DNA from: Coprothermobacterota bacterium
GTDB taxonomy: Bacteria > Caldisericota > JANLFM01
DNA length: 64,000 nt
Direction of reading: 5' to 3'
Assembly: GCA_026389455.1 (NCBI GenBank)
Contig: JAPLHV010000157.1
Span: 10,786 to 74,785 of the forward strand
A model generated the notes under the pieces. It was not told where the DNA came from and made no database searches. It worked only from the letters and a program-made list of their open reading frames with translations. Shown here in pieces: positions 21,262-56,400 of this stretch (position 1 is its first letter; each line of letters begins with the position of its first letter). Made by a program: the position numbers and the translations under genes.

Positions 21262-21295
21262 GGGAGCAGTGGTTCAGTAGTCAAGTGATTAAGTA

Positions 21296-22005
21296 ATTTA
21301 GTTCCTTCTCATTACAAGTGGGTAACCTACCAGCCTGCGGCAGGAGAAGACATGCTGCCGCAGGCTGTCTAGTCCAGCTACCCTGTAAATAGCCCCCGGC
21401 AGGGTGTTCATGGCGATAATGGTCTTAAAGAGTCTTGTCGACCCTGGGATGGGACCGTGGCGCCCCAGTGCGGCATCCTATTCTCATGGATCTACCGCGC
21501 CGCATCGTTCTTGCACGACTATGCGATCCTCCCCAAAGAGAACCTCCCTCAAGCGGTTTGACTAGACAGCCCCGGCAGCTCGATAGCCCCCGGCAGCCCG
21601 ATAGCCCCCGGCAGCCCGATAGCCCCCGGCAGCTCGATAGCCCCCGGCAGCCCGATAGCCCCCGGCAGCCCGATAGCCCCCGGCAGCTTGATAGCCCCCG
21701 GCAGCTTGATAGCCCCCGGCAGGGTGTTCTGTGACATGCTGCCGCAAGTTGATTTGTTGTCGTCAGCCTTAATAATCCCAGAGACATTGTTTCTAGACAT
21801 GCTGCCGCAGGCTGTTCTGTAGACATGCTGCCGCAGGCTGTTCTGTGCCCACTCGGGATGAGAAAGAGCAAGAGACATGCTGCCGCAAGTAGACATGCTG
21901 CCGCAGGTAGACATGCTGCCGCAGGTAGACATGCTGCCGCAGGTAGACATGCTGCCGCAGGTAGACATGCTGCCGCAGGTAGACATGCTGCCGCAGGCTG
22001 TTCTG
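21296..22005 (+). repeat. Composite non-coding repeat region, copy 1 of the ~140-bp element plus tandem arrays
   Basis: Hairpin at 21331-21367; 18-mer atagcccccggcagggtg at 21389-21406; motif gggaccgtggcgccccagtgcggcat at 21451-21476; eight 18-bp AGCCCCCGGCAGCYCGAT units at 21567-21726; 26-bp and 18-bp AGACATGCTGCCGCAGGT arrays at 21790-22000. Confidence 0.9.
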
Positions 22006-32324: not shown

Positions 32325-32712
32325 GGTTCCTTTTCATTTCAAGTGGGCATCCTACCAGCCTGCGGCAGCATGTCTTCTCCTGCCGCAGGCTGTTTAGTCC
32401 AGCTTCCCTGTAAATAGCCCCCGGCAGGGTGTTCATGGCGATGATGGTCTTTGAAGAGTCTTGTCGGCCCTGGGATAGTCCCAGGGATAGTCAAGCCCTT
32501 TTGCTCTTGAGGTCTCACCGACCCCGATCTGGTTTGCGCCGGAATGGTCCTCGTAGGGGCGGGTTTGAAACCCGCCCACGCACGAGCTGTCTCGGCATAG
32601 TGATGACTCATTCTCCAGAACACCCTGCCGGGGACTCCTAGGGGCGACGTATGCGTCGCCCCTAGGAGGGCTATCGAGCTGCCGCAAGTTGACTTGTTGT
32701 CGCTTACCCACC
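32325..32712 (+). repeat. Composite non-coding repeat region, copy 2 of the ~140-bp element (direct orientation relative to copy 1)
   Basis: Region 32345-32480 is about 90% identical to 21318-21455; hairpin at 32356-32392 with inverted loop; 18-mer at 32414-32431; 10-bp-stem hairpin at 32557-32577; perfect 13-bp IR at 32637-32666; shared end motif CTGCCGCAAGTTGAYTTGTTGTCG. Confidence 0.85.
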
Positions 32713-36272: not shown

Positions 36273-37544
36273 TTAGCGGACGACGATTTGCTCTCGAGAC
36301 GGTCCTACCGAAATCACCCGGATAGGAACCTGCAATTGCTCCTCAAGATAGGATACATAAGCTTTGGCAGTAGACGGAAGATCACTCCAAGCATGCGTGC
36401 TGCCCAGCTCCTCTTTCCATCCAGGGAGGGTTTGGTAGAGAGGGGTCAGTCTCTCCAGATCAAGAGCCAAGGCGGGGATCCCCCTCACCATTTGGCCATC
36501 GAGCTGATAGCCCGTGCAAACATGCAGTTCAGGAAGGCCGGAGAGGACATCCAGCTTGGTCAGGACAATCTCGTCGGGCGAGTTGGCAAAAGCGGCCATC
36601 CGCATCATCGGCAGGTCAAACCAGCCGCAGCGACGCGGGCGTCCAGTGGTCGTTCCGTATTCCTTGCCACGCTCGCGGATCGCTGTGCCCAACGTGTCGT
36701 TCAGTTCAGTCGGAAAGGGGCCGGCGCCTACGCGCGTGGCGTACGCTTTGGCGACGCCGATCACTTTGCTGATGCGCCGCGGTCCAACTCCAGAACCCAA
36801 GGAAACCATCCCGGCCGGCGGAGAAGTAGAGGTGACAAATGGGTAGGTGCCGATTTCGTGGTCAAGCAGTGTGCCTTGGGCGCCTTCCATGAGAAGGTTC
36901 TGCCCCTCGGTCAGGGCTCCCTCCAGGAAAGTCATCGTATTGGTGACGAAGGGGCGAATGAACTCGGCGTCAGCGAGGAGTTGTTGGTAAAGGGGCTCCA
37001 ACTGTATGGGTTGGCCTCCATAGACGCGTTCGATCAAGCGGTTCTTTTCCTCCACCGTTTGAGTCAGCAGTTCGCGCAGGTGGTCGGGGTGAAAAAGGTC
37101 GCAGACACGAATCCCTTTTCGCGCCACTTTGTCTGCATAGACAGGGCCGATGCCGCGTCCGGTGGTGCCGATCTTCTCCTGTCCTCGTGACTCTTCCTCC
37201 AGTTGGTCCAGCAGGCGGTGGTAAGGAAGCGCCAAATGGCAGCGGTCGCTGATCAGAAGCTTGGCCAAGGGAGGGCCTGTACGGCGAACCAACTCGTACT
37301 CTTCGCGCAAACTGACAGTGTCGATCACCACGCCATGCGCCACAACACAGGTCTTATCGGCGTAAAGCATGCCGGACGGCAGCAAGTGGAAGCGAAACGT
37401 CACGCCATTGGCAATGACCGTGTGCCCGGCATTGGCCCCTCCATTGAAACGGACCACGATTTGGTGCGATGGCGCAAGATAATCAATGACCCGCCCTTTC
37501 CCCTCGTCCCCCCATCCAAGGCCGACCAGAACAGTCACACTCAC
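36273..37544 (-). CDS. purA: Adenylosuccinate synthetase
   Basis: GLGWGDEGKG P-loop and GANAGHTV motifs. Confidence 0.9.
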   Translation of the reverse strand: MSVTVLVGLGWGDEGKGRVIDYLAPSHQIVVRFNGGANAGHTVIANGVTFRFHLLPSGMLYADKTCVVAHGVVIDTVSLREEYELVRRTGPPLAKLLISDRCHLALPYHRLLDQLEEESRGQEKIGTTGRGIGPVYADKVARKGIRVCDLFHPDHLRELLTQTVEEKNRLIERVYGGQPIQLEPLYQQLLADAEFIRPFVTNTMTFLEGALTEGQNLLMEGAQGTLLDHEIGTYPFVTSTSPPAGMVSLGSGVGPRRISKVIGVAKAYATRVGAGPFPTELNDTLGTAIRERGKEYGTTTGRPRRCGWFDLPMMRMAAFANSPDEIVLTKLDVLSGLPELHVCTGYQLDGQMVRGIPALALDLERLTPLYQTLPGWKEELGSTHAWSDLPSTAKAYVSYLEEQLQVPIRVISVGPSREQIVVR

Positions 37545-38926: not shown

Positions 38927-39004
<78 letters not shown>

Positions 39005-48481: not shown

Positions 48482-48652
48482 ATAGATCGATGCTTGTCAA
48501 TTTAATTATAGTCAGATCAGAACGAAGCGCAAGAAGAGGGATCTTCAGCCGTTGCTTCTCTGCCCTGTCATAAGGTACTCTCTTTTCTAGTTACCTAAGG
48601 GGTCGATCCTTTCACGAGGATCTACTCAATCTAGTCACTCGGAGGCGCAGAG

Positions 48653-49174
48653 ATGAACAAGAACCTGGTCCGGCAATGGGCGAACGTGATCGCCGTCTTG
48701 GCGATGATCGTGATCAACATTCTGGCCAACGCCTTGCCCTTCAACGGGCAAAATACCGGCGCCATCTCGGACCGATTTGCCGTCTTCTTCGTGCCGGCCG
48801 GCTACGTTTTCTCCATTTGGGGTTTGATCTACATCGGCCTGCTCCTTTTCGCCATTTACCAAGCTCTTCCCAGCCAGCGCGACAACCCGCGTCTGGTCAA
48901 GATTGGCTATTGGTTTGCCTTCAGCAGCCTGGCTAACATTGCTTGGCTCTTCCTCTGGCATTATCTGCAGTTCACCAGGACCATCTTCGCCATGCTGGCC
49001 CTGCTGATCTCGCTCCTGGTTATCTATCTGCGACTGGGGATTGGAAAAGAAAACGTTCCTTCCAGCGAGCGATGGATGGTGCAGACGCCTTTCAGCATCT
49101 ACCTGGGATGGATCTCGGTGGCCACTATTGCCAATAGTAGCCAGCCTGCGGCAGCATGTCTTCTAATTGCTTGA
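48653..49174 (+). pseudogene. Tryptophan-rich multi-TM membrane protein; reading frame ends inside a half-hairpin repeat, and the downstream ORF 49167-49454 continues as a membrane protein in another frame
   Basis: The C-terminus ...SSQPAAACLLIA* is encoded by CAGCCTGCGGCAGCATGTCTTC at 49142-49163. The hydrophobic ORF 49167-49454 overlaps it by 8 nt in a different frame. Confidence 0.35.
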
Positions 49175-49641
49175 TTTCCTGAAATGGAATGCCTGGGGCA
49201 TTTCTCCGGAGATCTGGGCTGTGATCCTGCTCGTCTTAGCGACATTGCTCTCCAGCGCGATGTCTTTCCGCCGGGGGGACGTGGCCTACTCTTTGGTGAT
49301 CGCCTGGGCGTTTATAGGCATCGCCTTGAAACAGGCGGCGACCCCGCTGGCGTCCATCGCTGCTTGGGCGGCAACCGCTGTCGTGCTCGTCGATCTGGCG
49401 GCAGCAAGCATCCTCCATGCGCGGCGCCGGATACCTTCCCGAGAGAATGCGTGATCCTGCAAGTGCATGTTCCCAAGAGTGAAGAAGTGAAATCAAAGGT
49501 GCATAAGTTGGAGCTGAAATGATCCCCTGAGTCGGAGGATCGAGTACAATCGACAACAGGACATCAAAGAGACAGAGGCCGCTGGGTAATACCCCAGCGG
49601 CCTCATGAAAGGGGCTTGCGGGCCCGGGAAGCGAGCGAGGC

Positions 49642-50624: not shown

Positions 50625-53120
50625 ATGACCTTCAATCTAGAGAGACTAACGATCAAAGCGCAAGACGCCCTCGCCCAAACCACCACCCTGGCTGAGAGCA
50701 TAAATCAGCAATCTCTGGAGCCGGAGCACCTGCTGGCCGCGCTATTGGAACAATCGGACGGGGTGGTCCCCCCACTTTTACAGAAACTTGGAGTTGAGAT
50801 CGTGCCTTTTACGCACCAATTGGCAGGAGAGATTGATAAGCTGCCCAAAGTATACGGCGGAGGCCAGGCCCACCCTTCCCCGCGCTTGAAGAAGGTGCTC
50901 GACCAATCGTTGCGGGAAGCCAGTCAACTAAAAGACGAGTACGTCTCCACTGAACATTTCCTCCTGTCTATGGCCGTACTCGGGGATGGAGCCGTAAAAC
51001 GTTTGCTGACCGCTGCCGGAATAGATCATGATCGTCTCTTGCAGGCTTTGGCCCAGATCCGGGGCACGCAGCGGATTACCGACCAAAACCCGGAAGACAA
51101 ATACCAGGCGCTGGAGAAGTACGGGCGCGATCTTACCGAGCTGGCTCGGCGCGGCAAATTGGATCCGGTCATCGGACGCGACGAGGAGATCCGTCGCACC
51201 ATCCAGGTGCTCTCCCGCCGCACCAAGAACAACCCAGTCCTCATTGGGGAGCCTGGAGTCGGCAAGACAGCCATTGTTGAAGGTTTGGCCCAGCGCATCG
51301 CCTCTGGCGATGTGCCGGAGAGTCTGAAGAATAAACGTGTAGTGGTTTTGGACTTGAGCGCTCTGGTGGCCGGCGCCAAGTTTCGCGGGGAGTTTGAAGA
51401 ACGGCTGAAAGCAGTCTTGAAGGAGGTAACCTCCTCCGAGGGAACCCTTATCCTTTTTATCGACGAGTTGCATACACTCATCGGAGCCGGCGCCGCCGAA
51501 GGCGCCATGGACGCCTCCAATATGCTGAAGCCGGCTCTGGCTCGCGGCGATCTACGCGCCATTGGCGCCACCACACTAGAGGAGTATCACAAGCGAATCG
51601 AGAAGGATCCCGCCCTAGGGCGGCGTTTCCAACCGGTGGTGGTGCGTGAGCCGAGCGTCGAGGACACCATTGCCATCTTGCGCGGATTGAAAGAGCGTTA
51701 TGAAGTACATCACGGAGTGAAGATCCAGGATACTGCCCTGGTGGCCGCGGCCGTTCTTTCCAACCGCTACATCGCGGATCGCTTCCTCCCCGACAAAGCC
51801 ATCGATCTGATGGATGAGGCGGCCTCACATCTGCGCATGGAGATCGACAGCCTGCCGACCGAGCTGGATGAGGTGGAGCGGCACTTGCGCCAATTGGAAG
51901 TGGAGCGCCAAGCCGTGCGGAAGGAGAAGGATCCGGTCTCCCAGTCGCGCTTGAAAAAGATGGAGGAGGAGATTGGAGCCTTGAAGGAACAAGCCCAGGC
52001 GCTGCGCGCTCGATGGCAGGTCGAGAAGGAAATCCTGCAAGGGATCGGTCAAACCACCGAGAAGATGGAAAGCATGCGCAATGAGGAGAAACAGGCCGAG
52101 AGCAAGGGTGACTGGGATCGCGCCGCCGAGCTGCGATTCGGTGTGCTCCCGGGCCTGCAGAAAGAGTTGTCCGCCCTCAACGAACGCCTGGAGGAGATCC
52201 AAAGGGGTGGAGGCATGTTGAAGGAAAAGGTCGGGGAGGAAGATATCGCCGAGATTGTCTCCAAGTGGACAGGAATTCCGGTGACCCGATTGATGGAGGA
52301 AGAAATGCAGAAGCTGGTTCGGATGGAGGAGCGTCTTGGAAGGCGCGTTGTAGGGCAGGATGAGGCCATCAGCGCCGTCTCCAAAGCCGTGCGTCGAGCC
52401 CGTTCCGGTCTCTGTGACCCGAATCGGCCCATCGGCTCCTTTCTCTTCCTGGGTCCCACCGGAGTCGGCAAGACCGAACTAGCCAAGGCGTTGGCTGAGT
52501 TTCTCTTCGATGATGAGAAGGCCATGGTCCGCCTGGATATGTCCGAGTACATGGAGAAACACACTGTCTCCCGTCTGATCGGCGCTCCTCCCGGCTATAT
52601 TGGGTATGAGGAAGGGGGGCAGTTGACCGAGGTCGTGCGCCGTAAGCCTTATACCGTGATTTTGCTGGACGAGGTTGAGAAGGCCCATCCCGACGTTTTT
52701 AATGTCCTCCTGCAGATCCTCGACGAGGGCCGTTTGACCGACGGACAAGGGCGAACGGTCGATTTCCGCAACACGGTCATCATCATGACCTCCAATCTGG
52801 GAAGTCAAATCATCCAAGAACTGTCCGGCCAATGGGAACTGATGAAAACCAAGGCGCTGGAGATCCTTCGTCTCAGCTTCCGGCCGGAGTTCCTCAACCG
52901 GATTGATGAGATCATCATTTTCCAAGCGCTCGGCAAGGAACAAGTCCGGAAGATCGTTGATTTGCAGTTGCAGCGCTTGTCAGCTCGCCTCTTGGAGAAA
53001 CAGATCGGTTTGGAAGTGACGCCTGGTGCGCGTGATTTGCTGGCTGATGTGGGGTACGAGCCTGCCTATGGAGCGCGCCCCCTCAAGCGTGCCATCCAAC
53101 GCGAGGTGATGCGCAAATAA
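50625..53120 (+). CDS. clpB: ATP-dependent chaperone ClpB; reading frame ends directly after the second AAA+ module, so the C-terminal ~30 residues appear to be missing
   Basis: Two AAA+ modules ([18 protein letters not shown]) and a coiled-coil middle domain. The ORF ends ...[14 protein letters not shown] where the stop abuts the TIR element. Confidence 0.9.
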
Positions 53121-53279
53121 GGGGACAGATTTATTTTTCCACTCTTCCAGCCTGTTCACATGCCTGGTTGCCGTCCTGCCACCCGTTTCATGAGGCAGGC
53201 CAAGTTCCGTCCCTCGCCGATAATCAGCATCCGCGAGGAGAACGGTTTGCCTGTCATCAATAAATAAATCTGTCCCCTT
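53119..53279 (+). repeat. 161-bp element bounded by perfect 18-bp terminal inverted repeats (AAGGGGACAGATTTATTT / AAATAAATCTGTCCCCTT), MITE-like
   Basis: Inverted repeats at 53119-53136 and 53262-53279 read directly; the element fills the gap between the convergent clpB and acetyltransferase genes. Confidence 0.75.
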
Positions 53280-53283
53280 TGTT

Positions 53284-54345
53284 TTAGAACATGTCGTAAT
53301 CGCCGGAGGTGATGTACCAGTCCTCCAGCACCCCCAAGGCAGTATGATCGATCGACCCGTCCGGGGAGTAAGCGATCAGAGGTTGGTTCAGCGATCGCAC
53401 GCGAAACCCGTTTTCCCGGTAGGAAGGGAGCAAGGGAGAGTGCATCATCAGCCAGGAAGCAACGATGGCCGCTTTCTCCCGATGGAACTGGTCCAGCAAA
53501 AGGGTGAGGAAAATATTTGCCAAGCGGGGATCCCAACGCTCGACGAAGAGCTCCCCCACGGAGCCCAAGCGATAGGCCAAGTCGACGGTGCGGGTGACGG
53601 CGAAGCCGCGCAGTGCGCCTTTCTCTCCTAAAGCCCAAGCCTTGTAGCCGGCCGATGGGTGATCGAGATAGCGCCAGTTCAAGTAATCGCACTCCTTTTC
53701 CACGGCGAATCGGCAGCGCTCGCGCAAGACTTGCCAGAGCGCATCTGTGTCTGCCCCAAAGCGCTGAATCGGATGGAGGGAGAAACCCTCTTCCCTTTTC
53801 CCCCGACCGGAAAAGTAGGCCCAGAGAAGCGGTTTCGCCACGGTTCCAGCCAGATGGGCCAGGGTCGGTGAAGGCAGGCGGCCTCGCAGAGCCGCGCCGA
53901 GATCCAGCACCTTCAATAAGCGTGCCACCTTGCCCACTTCGACCCAGCCGAAACGCCGGATGTAACCGTGATAAGAGTTGCGGTTGGGAAAACCGTAGTA
54001 GAGAGGGATCTTCCTGCGCGCACCCTCCTGGAAGGTCGCCAGTACGAGCTTCTTGAAGACGCCCTGACCTCGGCAGGCCGGGTCCACCATGGTGTCCACC
54101 GATTGCCCTCCGATCACTCGAGAGGCGCCGGTCTTCATGGGGACCGCAAAGTAAGCTTCCTGTCCCACGACTTTCCCGTTGGCGCGCGCCAGAGCGATCA
54201 GAGGCGAGGCGAAGGGGTTGCGTTGGTATTCCCACCGCCAGTCTTCCATTTCCCGGGGGATCTTGGGAAAAGTGCGGTGGAAGAGGTCGAGGATTCCCTC
54301 CTCGTCTCCGGGCTGGTAGAAGCCGATTTCCAGTTCGTTGGCCAT
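53284..54345 (-). CDS. GNAT-family acetyltransferase-like protein (two-domain, 353 aa)
   Basis: Acetyl-CoA-binding-type region QSVDTMVDPACRGQGVFKKLV; the domain assignment is tentative. Confidence 0.5.
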   Translation of the reverse strand: MANELEIGFYQPGDEEGILDLFHRTFPKIPREMEDWRWEYQRNPFASPLIALARANGKVVGQEAYFAVPMKTGASRVIGGQSVDTMVDPACRGQGVFKKLVLATFQEGARRKIPLYYGFPNRNSYHGYIRRFGWVEVGKVARLLKVLDLGAALRGRLPSPTLAHLAGTVAKPLLWAYFSGRGKREEGFSLHPIQRFGADTDALWQVLRERCRFAVEKECDYLNWRYLDHPSAGYKAWALGEKGALRGFAVTRTVDLAYRLGSVGELFVERWDPRLANIFLTLLLDQFHREKAAIVASWLMMHSPLLPSYRENGFRVRSLNQPLIAYSPDGSIDHTALGVLEDWYITSGDYDMF

Positions 54346-55299: not shown

Positions 55300-56272
55300 G
55301 CTTTCCTTGACCAGCCTTCCCACTCCGCTGGAAGCGCTCCCTACTCTCTCCCGCCAACTGGGGGTTGAATTATGGATCAAGCGTGATGACCTCACTTCCC
55401 CCGCGGGAGGTGGAAATAAGGTTCGTAAGCTGGAATTCCTGCTGGCTGATGCGAACTCGCGTAAAGCGACTGCGGTCATTACCCTGGGCGCCGTGCAGTC
55501 CAACCATTGCCGTCAAACTGCTCTCTTGGCTGCTAAGCTGGGGCACGAAGCTCACTTGGTCTTGATCGGCGAGGAGCCGATAGATAGACAGGGGAACCTC
55601 TTGCTGGATACCTTATCCGGCGCCACCTTGCACTTTGGAGCGCGAACCTTGGAAGAGGGGCGAGCGATCGCCCAACAGTTGATGGAGACATTGCGGGCAT
55701 GCGGCAAGGAACCCTACCTGATCCCCTATGGAGGTTCCGACCCAATCGGCGTGCAAGGGTATGTGGCTGCCTGGGCCGAACTACAGGAGCAAGCCCAAGC
55801 GCGCTCGCTCTCCTTCGACTGCATCGTCCATGCTTCCTCTTCGGGAGGCACCCAAGCCGGTTTGTTGGTGGGCCAACAGGTCTATGGCGGCAGCGGACAA
55901 GTGATCGGCATCAGCGTGGGGCCGCCCGCGACCACTCTGGCCCGGGAAGTAGCCGCCCTGGCCGGTCAAACCGCTCAAGCCATCGGCTTGGATTCTTTTA
56001 GCCTATCTTCAGCGCCAATTATCCTGGATCAGTACATCGGCCCAGGATACGCGCTCCTCGACGAGACCACCTACGCCGCCATTCGGCGATTGGCGCAGAC
56101 CGAAGCGATCCTTCTCGATCCTGTCTACACAGGGAAAGCGTTCACTGGTTTCCTGCGATTGGCTAGCGAAGGAAGGCTAGGGAAACGCGCCTTGTTCTGG
56201 CATACCGGTGGAGCGCCTGCCCTTTATAGCTACGCCGATCAATTGACAAGCAGTCAGCCTGCGGCAGCATGA
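55280..56272 (+). CDS. PLP-dependent D-cysteine desulfhydrase / ACC-deaminase-family enzyme; last residues encoded by the repeat
   Basis: LPTPLE...IKRDDLT...GGNKVRKLEFLLADA matches the DcyD family N-terminus. The C-terminus SSQPAAA* is encoded by CAGCCTGCGGCAGCATGA. Confidence 0.7.
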   Translation: MVLFNSRLSLTSLPTPLEALPTLSRQLGVELWIKRDDLTSPAGGGNKVRKLEFLLADANSRKATAVITLGAVQSNHCRQTALLAAKLGHEAHLVLIGEEPIDRQGNLLLDTLSGATLHFGARTLEEGRAIAQQLMETLRACGKEPYLIPYGGSDPIGVQGYVAAWAELQEQAQARSLSFDCIVHASSSGGTQAGLLVGQQVYGGSGQVIGISVGPPATTLAREVAALAGQTAQAIGLDSFSLSSAPIILDQYIGPGYALLDETTYAAIRRLAQTEAILLDPVYTGKAFTGFLRLASEGRLGKRALFWHTGGAPALYSYADQLTSSQPAAA

Positions 56273-56400
56273 CAGGACACCCTGCCGGGAGCTATCTACT
56301 TGCCGGGAGCTATCTACTTGCCGGGAGCTTGCCAAACTTGAAAGCCCGCGGCAGCACGATAGCCTGCGGCAGCACGATAGCCTGCGGCAGCAAGACACTG
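56255..56400 (+). repeat. Repeat cluster: half-hairpin, 18-mer, 3x CCGGGAGCTATCTACTTG and 2x CCTGCGGCAGCACGATAG
   Basis: Direct reading of the sequence. Confidence 0.85.

Follow-up and report, generated by a model that had tools for sequence, protein, structure and literature searches.

We analysed a 64,000-nucleotide stretch of the genome of a Coprothermobacterota bacterium (GenBank assembly GCA_026389455.1, contig JAPLHV010000157.1, positions 10,786 to 74,785), referred to here as the window, with attention to a short repeat-bounded element which lies between the chaperone gene clpB and a gene for a GNAT-type acetyltransferase. The list of open reading frames (ORFs) places clpB at 50625-53120 on the plus strand; it encodes 831 aa and is intact apart from an in-frame loss of 30 codons near its 3' end. 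The acetyltransferase gene is convergent (53284-54345, minus strand, 353 aa in the ORF list), intact and orthologous to the PF13527 (Acetyltransf_9) genes of related loci (L001-L006). The element fills the spacer between the two genes and measures 161 bp in all, with two 18-bp arms (18/18 complementary) around a 125-nt interior. Its left terminal inverted repeat, AAGGGGACAGATTTATTT, is found at 53119-53136 on the plus strand and its right one, which reads AAATAAATCTGTCCCCTT on the plus strand, is the exact reverse complement of the left at 53262-53279 on the minus strand. An earlier note on this DNA had described this unit, with the clpB stop codon joined to the left repeat and the right repeat 5 nt before the convergent stop; we could confirm the first two points, the TAA (53118-53120) overlapping the left repeat by its last 2 nt, while the distance on the right is 4 nt. 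The motif GGGGACAG at 53121-53128 fits the consensus GGGGWSAS. No ORF of at least 40 aa in the list is confined to the element, and the flanks, which end in CAAAT on the left and begin with TGTTT on the right, contain no direct repeat which could be a target-site duplication. Further copies of the repeat were not found in the window at up to 3 mismatches (0.05 matches expected by chance) or at 4. No Rfam family was matched at the clpB-GNAT locus, and a literature search for the repeat sequence as text returned unrelated matches only.

We compared the window ClpB to its homologs and found it to be 30 residues short, in agreement with the earlier note, which had put the loss at about 30 residues of a small C-terminal subdomain. 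The three closest homologs are 862, 861 and 861 aa long, at 96, 95 and 85% identity, and the 120 best matches all have 858-886 aa with one exception (P0046, 834 aa). After IQREVM the close orthologs continue with DPLAMQILEG(R/C)YKEGDTVLVDAA(G/D)G(T/A)FLFH and then RK(E). Of the 81 profile positions of the Pfam domain ClpB_D2-small (PF10431), the window protein covers 1-61, whereas the ortholog from the sister locus described below covers 1-81; the C-terminal D2-small domain, complete in a full-length ClpB, is thus incomplete here. The missing 30 residues correspond to residues 818-847 of Thermus thermophilus ClpB (1QVR), a region which also aligns in the solved ClpB, ClpC and Hsp104 chains; the last helix and beta-hairpin of the D2-small domain are taken and the final Arg-Lys-stop is kept. 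The opposite outcome considered by the earlier note, relatives whose ClpB ends at the same residue and a repeat without further copies, was not found: the orthologs have 861-862 aa, and copies of the repeat are abundant elsewhere, as reported below.

The loci of the three closest ClpB homologs share the gene order dnaJ-clpB-(variable spacer)-GNAT-PHP-PALP. One of them (L003) lies in the metagenome-assembled genome (MAG) GCA_964464245.1, which is sister to the window organism. Its full-length clpB of 861 aa ends ...TTC CAC CGC AAA TAA GGGGACAGATTTATT..., with the stop directly adjoining the repeat; the left repeat (GGGGACAG) is identical to that of the window and at the same site, and is followed by a 227-nt interior and then by the same 4 nt and the GNAT stop. 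Aligning the window to this locus (alignment A1) revealed an exact 90-nt gap in the window between GTG ATG and CGC AAA TAA. The scar of this 90-bp in-frame deletion lies at 53111..53112 on the plus strand, 7 nt upstream of the left repeat and directly followed by the ancestral CGC AAA TAA; the lost codons are DPLAMQILEGCYKEGDTVLVDAADGAFLFH in the sister, and no microhomology was seen at the junction. The same alignment contains a 104-nt gap inside the window element and a 4-nt AATA difference at the right repeat, where comparison with intact elements identified AATAAATAAATC of the window as the ancestral state, the sister having lost 4 nt. Nucleotide identity between the two loci is 92% in clpB, 89.6% in the GNAT gene and 93% in the element (window and L001 are 86.3% identical in the GNAT gene), and because the element has diverged about as much as its neighbours, it was inherited with them from a common ancestor. 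As the repeat was already fused to the stop of an intact clpB, and as the last two codons and the stop were kept, the shortening of ClpB is a distinct, later in-frame deletion in the window lineage, separate from the insertion of the element.

These results do not fit the history proposed in the earlier note, in which insertion of the element truncated ClpB at the left repeat. An active miniature inverted-repeat transposable element (MITE) inserted in the 3' end of clpB, cutting off the last ~30 codons at the left repeat, would agree with a TAA that overlaps the repeat, a ClpB 30 aa short and perfect repeats. However, the same repeat stands beside the stop of a full-length clpB in the sister, and the window has kept the ancestral last two codons and stop, the 90-nt gap being internal to the gene with its break at 53111/53112, 7 nt upstream of the repeat and not at it. 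In addition, a target-site duplication is lacking, no further copy was found in the 64 kb, and what lies between the repeats is decayed gene sequence. We therefore regard this explanation as barely credible. A second possibility is that the shortening is an assembly or sequencing artefact and that the real gene is full length, given that the source is probably a metagenome assembly and that inverted repeats disturb assemblers. Against this, the exact 831-aa product was found on three Logan contigs, of which the one compared at the DNA level (L127, run ERR11260134, an independent assembly) matches the window at 100% identity through both the clpB deletion and the element until it breaks off at 5652, inside the right repeat; furthermore, the gap is exactly 30 codons and lies outside the repeat, with unique sequence on either side. 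An artefact is accordingly highly improbable. The clpB-repeat junction CGCAAATAAGGGGACAGATTTATT gave 0 matches in JGI metagenome contigs. It should be noted that the end of L127 is an instance of an inverted repeat splitting a short-read assembly, and such elements may be under-reported in MAGs.

The earlier note was right that no ORF lies inside the element. The origin of the interior is nevertheless recognisable, with the remnant of a tyrosine-transposase gene on the minus strand. Genes resembling those of REP-associated tyrosine transposases (RAYTs; REP, repetitive extragenic palindromic) and bounded by long terminal inverted repeats were named "TIRtrons", and their products "TIRYTs", by Di Nocera et al. 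2013 (PMC3733652). These proteins correspond to subclass 2.1 of the TnpA-Y1 family of Quentin et al. 2018, which has the motifs NHVH, W[EQ] and Y[IV]ELNP, a median of 238 aa in length and, at the C-terminus, a helix-turn-helix-like tail with an SS motif, and for which no REPs were found (PMC6006769); in the classification of Bertels et al. 2017 (PMC5581495) this subclass is RAYT Group 1. In the sister, the interior reads ...NRQAVFVTDGDYRHNLKNLREWKDAYGCRIYAYCLMTNRVYLIIDPGKDGRNLACLMKRVAGR... on the minus strand and matches Pfam Y1_Tnp (E 5.6e-4) and NCBIfam REP_Tyr_transpos (NF047646; E 5.7e-5, 23 bits), both below the curated cut-offs. Among TIRYT proteins whose own genes are bounded by the 17-mer AAGGGGACAGATTTATT of the repeat, this fossil has 82% identity over 73 aa with residues 22-93 of an intact metagenomic one (L131; E 1e-41), 56% with a second protein (L081; E 2e-31) and 48% with the published TIRYT "tkm 1558" (E 5e-23). 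The window itself shares 91% and 88% identity over 67 nt (53145-53210, blastn) with the intact elements of L131 and L132, respectively. No other similarity to TIRYTs was found in the window.

In intact elements the left-repeat end is the 3' end of the TIRYT gene and contains its stop codon, and the right-repeat end lies upstream of the gene. With this orientation, a four-way DNA alignment (A4) resolved the window's interior into two fossil blocks and three deletion scars, all of them younger than the element's presence at this site. Block 1 (53137..53215, minus strand) holds approximately codons 71-93 of the 231-aa protein (GRNLACLMKRVAGRq..TRHVNRLE), frameshifted, and within it, at ~53143/53144 (minus strand), is the scar of a deletion of ~404 nt which removed the 3' two-thirds of the gene and whose junction has at most ~4 nt of microhomology (TTTC). 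Block 2 (53216..53258, minus strand) holds approximately codons 22-35, with RQTVLLADADYRR against NRQAVFVTDGDF, and ends in the scar of a ~95-nt deletion at ~53258/53259 (minus strand) which took the 5' untranslated region (UTR), the start codon and codons 1-21. Compared to an intact element, the sister lacks the ~404, ~95 and 4 nt, and the window shares the ~404- and ~95-nt deletions with it and has lost a further 104 nt. The scar of this window-specific 104-bp deletion, seen in both A1 and A4, lies at 53215..53216; no microhomology was seen at its junction, and it removed the part which in the sister still encodes ...NLKNLREWKDAYGCRIYAYCLMTNRVYLIIDPGKD, including a degenerate HUH site that reads NRVY instead of NHVH. 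The mapped deletions account for the 157 nt between the repeat cores of the window, and the distance between the repeat ends falls from ~762 bp in intact elements to 261 bp in the sister and 161 bp in the window. About 600 of ~760 nt are gone, among them the HUH and Tyr regions, and what is left are ~40 frameshifted codons.

The window element thus encodes nothing and cannot move by itself. Taken together, we conclude that it is very probably a fossil TIRtron (a TIRYT element of TnpA-Y1 subclass 2.1, RAYT Group 1) in a relic state, with the loss in clpB as a separate event. The description "MITE-like" in the earlier note holds in so far as the element is a repeat-bounded, non-coding and non-autonomous relic; it is not a classic MITE, having no target-site duplication, a single copy in the window and an interior of decayed transposase sequence.

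We also searched for the repeat in a collection of 596 Gb with one genome per species. The 17-mer AAGGGGACAGATTTATT gave at least 185 exact matches in at least 119 stretches of genome DNA, against ~69 expected for the entire collection under uniform composition. Four contigs of the sister MAG (L003, L071, L073 and L102) carry the repeat. Hosts among the matches listed include Pseudomonas, Stutzerimonas and other Gammaproteobacteria, Desulfobacterota, Nitrospirota, Acidobacteriota, Spirochaetota, Planctomycetota (anammox), Binatia, Aerophobetes and SAR324. At least six convergent exact pairs are 725-798 nt apart, at least three are 154-419 nt apart and at least 30 form hairpins with 7-67-nt loops. 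A gene for 230-244 aa, reading MPRxGRVVLPNYPHH.VQRGHNRQVVF...LMTNHVHLL...LWEGRYKS...YIELNPVRA...QRGQLTG.RF...GRP, lies within at least four of the six long pairs (L010, L020, L025 and L118), and L076 has a frame-shifted version of 207 aa. Intact relatives match Pfam Y1_Tnp at 1e-12 and score 78.6 and 72.1 bits on NF047646, below its equivalog cut-off of 80, and 22.7 and 20.8 bits on the IS200/IS605 TnpA model NF033573 (cut-off 55).

A degenerate pattern made from the 5' coding part of the fossil led to six metagenome contigs. Two of these (L131 and L132) carry complete TIRtrons of 758 nt from GGGGACAG to CTGTCCCC, and a third (L133) is cut by the contig end after codon ~53. The repeats of L132 match at 17/17 positions at both ends, the TIRYT gene of L131 and L132 encodes 231 aa with its stop codon inside the repeat, and no target-site duplication was seen at either. 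Both proteins have the features of subclass 2.1, reading LMTNHVHLI, LWEGRF, RYVELNP and RWSSY.

The inverted repeat might also have arisen by chance, or might be a canonical REP/REPIN doublet belonging to a RAYT system, as the sequence is palindromic and extragenic between convergent genes, which is the typical location of REPs (PMC3733652). However, 0.05 matches were expected by chance, the arm AAGGGGACAGATTTATTT contains neither GTAG nor GTGG and thus lacks the GT[AG]G foot, it is not self-complementary, and no REPs are found with the associated protein family, subclass 2.1, so that the probability of such an explanation is close to negligible.

Several other copies of the repeat deserve mention in their own right. 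On contig L102 it forms tandem doublets in the same orientation, 23 nt apart, at 1788/1811 and 2940/2963 (within regions 1788-1827 and 2859-2979), and at 2423-2439 it again adjoins a TAA stop (GAG GAA TAA GGGGACAG), here of an 81-aa ORF; it may be a recurring trait of these repeats that their ends supply or overlap a stop codon. On contig L073 a copy at 6823-6911 keeps only the left repeat and the last ~25 TIRYT codons (..EEIEKKIERRWNLDGREGRE), and ~390 nt away, at 7299-7989, are ORFs which read as fragments of an unrelated transposase. The repeat hairpins of Bowmanella (L017, 630-688), Pseudomonas sediminis (L034, 4610-4668) and Stutzerimonas tarimensis (L018, 1778-1836) share both the 17-nt arms and a similar 25-nt loop (TATGRCRCAGCRC..TCAGCCTRAA), a likeness which suggests that a mini-element of ~59 nt has spread across genera.

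These comparisons suggest the following history of the spacer. An element of ~762 bp would have come to fill the clpB-GNAT spacer in an ancestor which the window organism shares with the sister MAG, its A-rich end supplying or overlapping the clpB stop codon. The copy would at that stage already have been without codons 1-21 and the 5' UTR (~95 nt). A loss of ~404 nt towards the 3' end of the gene would have come next and, in the window lineage, one of a further 104 nt, leaving two repeats around ~40 codons of frameshifted debris. The 90-bp in-frame deletion in clpB would also have happened later, in the window lineage. This relative order of the deletions is the one implied by which copies share each of them. 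The 5'-truncated junction (the repeat, 3-10 A/T-rich nt, then ACAGGCAAGCCGTTTTCGT) is common to the window, L003, L130 and, three times, L102, which is another contig of the L003 MAG with a different gene context and in which the pattern is partly a local segmental duplication. This distribution suggests that a truncated, non-autonomous copy was duplicated to new sites and then decayed differently at each.

The spacer holds other DNA in the remaining relatives: a gene with a BAAT_C domain in L001/L002 (4945-5929), and in L004-L007 (8587-10069) four or five small ORFs including a Rieske protein in L004-L006, with L007 cut off beyond them. Thus three related lineages, with ClpB proteins 85-96% identical, have three unrelated contents between the same convergent genes, and the clpB-GNAT spacer is a hot spot of gene turnover. 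A degenerate repeat as the trace of an older insertion was sought in the spacers of L001 and L004 and rejected, with none at up to 5 mismatches.

A number of points weigh against our identification and history. The protein-level signal of the window alone is nearly gone (tblastn E 0.007-0.05), so that the identification rests on the sister locus and on homology at the DNA level. No empty site was found in any relative, the spacers of L001/L002 and L004-L007 holding unrelated DNA, and it is therefore by inference that we describe the insertion event and its exact borders. The search of the window organism for copies and for intact TIRYT genes covered the 64 kb of the window. Finally, a mechanistic link between the clpB deletion and the repeat, which are 7 nt apart, is possible, either as a hairpin-stimulated deletion or through aberrant cleavage by a TIRYT.

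The element could also still be mobilised in trans, as a non-autonomous unit, by an intact TIRYT elsewhere in the genome. Both repeats are perfect, intact close relatives exist in related metagenomes (L131-L133), and the 5'-truncated junction (repeat, 3-10 nt, ACAGGCAAGCC) at other loci in L102 and L130 suggests spread after the truncation. On the other hand, two lineages which have diverged by ~8% have the element at an orthologous site through vertical inheritance, the window contains no second copy and no TIRYT gene, the L102 copies are partly a local segmental duplication, and no TIRYT has been shown to move (PMC3733652). On these grounds, present-day mobilisation appears rather improbable. 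A broader proposal is that the window and the sister locus are intermediates in the decay of a ~760-bp TIRtron to a short hairpin, that truncated derivatives at unrelated loci were copied in trans by a TIRYT and that the hairpin, or aberrant cleavage at it, possibly caused the loss in clpB. We offer this tentatively, as something which may well not hold; if true, it would be the first natural evidence that TIRYTs mobilise DNA which is defined by a 17-18-nt repeat (AAGGGGACAGATTTATT) conserved base for base across many phyla.

We then considered whether the remaining repeat pair has been put to use, since the earlier note had suggested testing its fold as a long bidirectional terminator. In the predicted structures of both RNA strands (z -4.5 for the plus and -5.5 for the minus strand) and of the single-stranded DNA (z -4.1), minimum-free-energy and centroid alike, the two arms are paired; for the sister's RNA the z-score is -3.8. 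A T-rich run follows each 3' arm (CCCCTTTGTTTT on the plus strand and CCCCTTATTTG on the minus strand). A canonical intrinsic terminator combines a G+C-rich stem with a loop of 3-8 nt and a T-run after it; a consensus scan returned none between clpB and GNAT, and the loop here is 125 nt. The long-range 18-bp stem with its T-rich runs could work like a terminator without being a canonical one.

An exapted hairpin which terminates transcription from both sides or protects both mRNA 3' ends would be compatible with a fossil origin. In its favour are the folds, the T-rich runs between genes that have no canonical terminator, and the fact that both arms are unchanged between the window and the sister while the interior shrank. 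However, a loop of 125 nt in the window or 227 nt in the sister is far from that of a canonical terminator, the scan was negative, and the relatives L001 and L004 manage without such a hairpin. In addition, zero changes in 34 repeat nt at ~7% divergence would arise by chance with p ~0.08 (our estimate from the identities), and for this reason the arms give no evidence of selection. Exaptation is therefore unlikely in our judgement, and the default remains a passive fossil, whose 18-bp stem would at most form a passive hairpin in RNA or DNA.

The consequences of the separate deletion in clpB were also examined. The other 829 codons of the gene are undamaged and align colinearly with those of the orthologs, and the substitutions specific to the window protein are mostly conservative. 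On the window branch we counted 15 non-synonymous to 40 synonymous changes, compared to 30 to 150 on the sister branches, a difference in ratio by which selection on the shortened gene is not significantly relaxed (Fisher p = 0.12). Either the deletion is recent or the shortened protein is still useful. In Mycobacterium tuberculosis ClpC1, C-terminal deletions past a threshold abolish oligomerisation and chaperone activity and spare the ATPase (PMC3527473), and because of this behaviour of a related protein it is plausible, by analogy, that the shortened ClpB is impaired.

Three ways in which the missing segment might be restored were considered and rejected. Relocation of the missing 90 nt or 30 aa within the window produced chance matches only, the best of them inside the ORF at 36273-37544, which from its sequence we take to encode adenylosuccinate synthetase. 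Read-through or recoding of the clpB TAA would add 48 in-frame codons which at first seemed faintly ClpB-like, but these are the reverse strand of the TIRYT debris and the C-terminus of the orthologs is quite different. An inversion between the repeats does not restore the tail either, as DPLAMQILEG... appears in no frame. No second Clp ATPase was found in the window.

Upstream of clpB, the window (48600-49640 compared to 507-1252 of L001) lacks the genes for a MerR-family regulator and HSP20 which L001/L002 have ahead of dnaJ-clpB, and of which L004 has only the MerR gene; homology to L001 starts at 49454, with the last ~68 nt of hsp20. With this loss and the deletion in ClpB, the heat-shock cluster has been eroded at both ends in the window lineage. 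Two overlapping ORFs on the same strand, at 48653-49174 (173 aa) and 49167-49454 (95 aa), resemble membrane proteins and look like one gene split by a frameshift; at the DNA level the 95-aa ORF shares 78% identity with the gene that comes first in L004. Rfam and ARAGORN gave a single match in the window, a tRNA-Pro(GGG) at 38927-39004 on the minus strand.

Another short repeat in the window, CAGCCTGCGGCAG, is unrelated to the first and occurs 11 times at up to 1 mismatch (0.18 expected), in most cases with CATGTCT after it. It is found as hairpins with 13-nt arms, as tandems and singly at 21331-21367, 21802-21840, 21988-22000, 32356-32392, 49142-49154, 56255-56267 and 56360-56390, and the copy at 49142 marks the junction of the 173- and 95-aa ORFs. 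At 21331/21355 and 32356/32380 it is the core of a ~170-200-bp repeat, in which CTAC/GTAG adjoins the stem in a REP-like manner, and the 11-nt loop is flipped between these two copies (GAGAAGACATG and CATGTCTTCTC). This ~190-bp repeat (window ~21287-21476 and ~32326-32532) is shared with contig L071 of the sister MAG (5045-5175 and 5886-6087) at 76-92% identity. On that contig one copy directly adjoins a TIRtron repeat (AAAAAAGGGGACAGATTTATTTATTTAGTTCC), and between the two copies, which are in inverted orientation, lies a small cassette of two genes which by appearance resembles a toxin-antitoxin pair.

For annotation, the value of these results is that what appeared to be a transposon hit on a core chaperone was resolved, through a sister genome, into two unrelated events. 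They also add a decay series (~762 to 261 to 161 bp) to a little-studied transposase class, document that in one TIRYT clade an exact 17-mer of the repeat has been conserved in many phyla, and flag a natural ClpB allele without the end of its D2-small domain. The window feature is a fossil of a class already described and does not overturn current understanding, and its biological value is modest.

Compared to known systems, the shortened ClpB resembles C-terminally truncated Hsp100/Clp ATPases such as the ClpC1 deletions in that part of the D2-small (C-terminal) subdomain is gone. It differs in being a natural allele which lacks 30 internal residues and keeps the last two. Among mobile elements, the IS200/IS605 family has a distantly related Y1 HUH catalytic core (Pfam PF01797), but its ends carry subterminal hairpins and no terminal inverted repeats and its TnpA has ~150 aa with a Y---Q motif, whereas elements of the window type end in terminal inverted repeats and their proteins fall far below the NF033573 cut-off. 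Bacterial MITEs (RUP, NEMIS/Correia, ERIC, Nezha) are alike in being short and non-coding and in lying at gene 3' ends: at 161 bp, with perfect 18-bp repeats, the window element is within the usual range of 70-300 bp and 15-30-bp terminal repeats with no coding capacity, and it too derives from a larger element with the same ends and can fold into a long RNA hairpin. Unlike them, it has no target-site duplication, its parent is an HUH and not a DDE element, and its one copy in 64 kb is orthologous and vertically inherited in two lineages and not demonstrably transposed.

The REPIN-RAYT systems (Nunvar 2010; Bertels & Rainey 2011, PMC3116915; E. coli TnpA-REP) belong to the same Y1/HUH superfamily and likewise have a gene flanked by inverted repeats which are also found as short extragenic hairpin doublets, and by analogy a likely action on single-stranded DNA hairpins. 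From this likeness, TIRYT enzymes would be expected to act on single-stranded DNA with paired repeats, cleaving and joining ends recognised through the hairpin. A REP unit has GT[AG]G at the foot of a short self-complementary unit of 20-40 nt (PMC6006769); here there is no such tetranucleotide, the arms are not palindromes and intact relatives score just under the NF047646 cut-off.

The closest likeness is to the TIRtrons themselves. Many TIRtron repeats share GGGGWSAS (PMC3733652; restated in PMC6006769), which the inverted terminal repeats of the window unit carry, and its interior is homologous to 230-aa TIRYT genes with NHVH, WE and Y[IV]ELNP and the C-terminal tail. The published "tkm 1558" belongs to the same QRGHNRQ clade as the sister's fossil. 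Some TIRtron repeats form moderately abundant families, as dimers or clusters (PMC3733652), and the repeats that we found elsewhere also occur as dimers and hairpins. The window unit differs in lacking an intact Y1 transposase gene (HUH and catalytic Tyr), which makes it a relic, and it comes from an uncultured lineage for which "Caldiserica" MAGs, at 73-74%, are the nearest named relatives in ClpB. Where the TIRtron publications give only the 8-nt motif, our analysis found an exact 17-mer which is common to many phyla.

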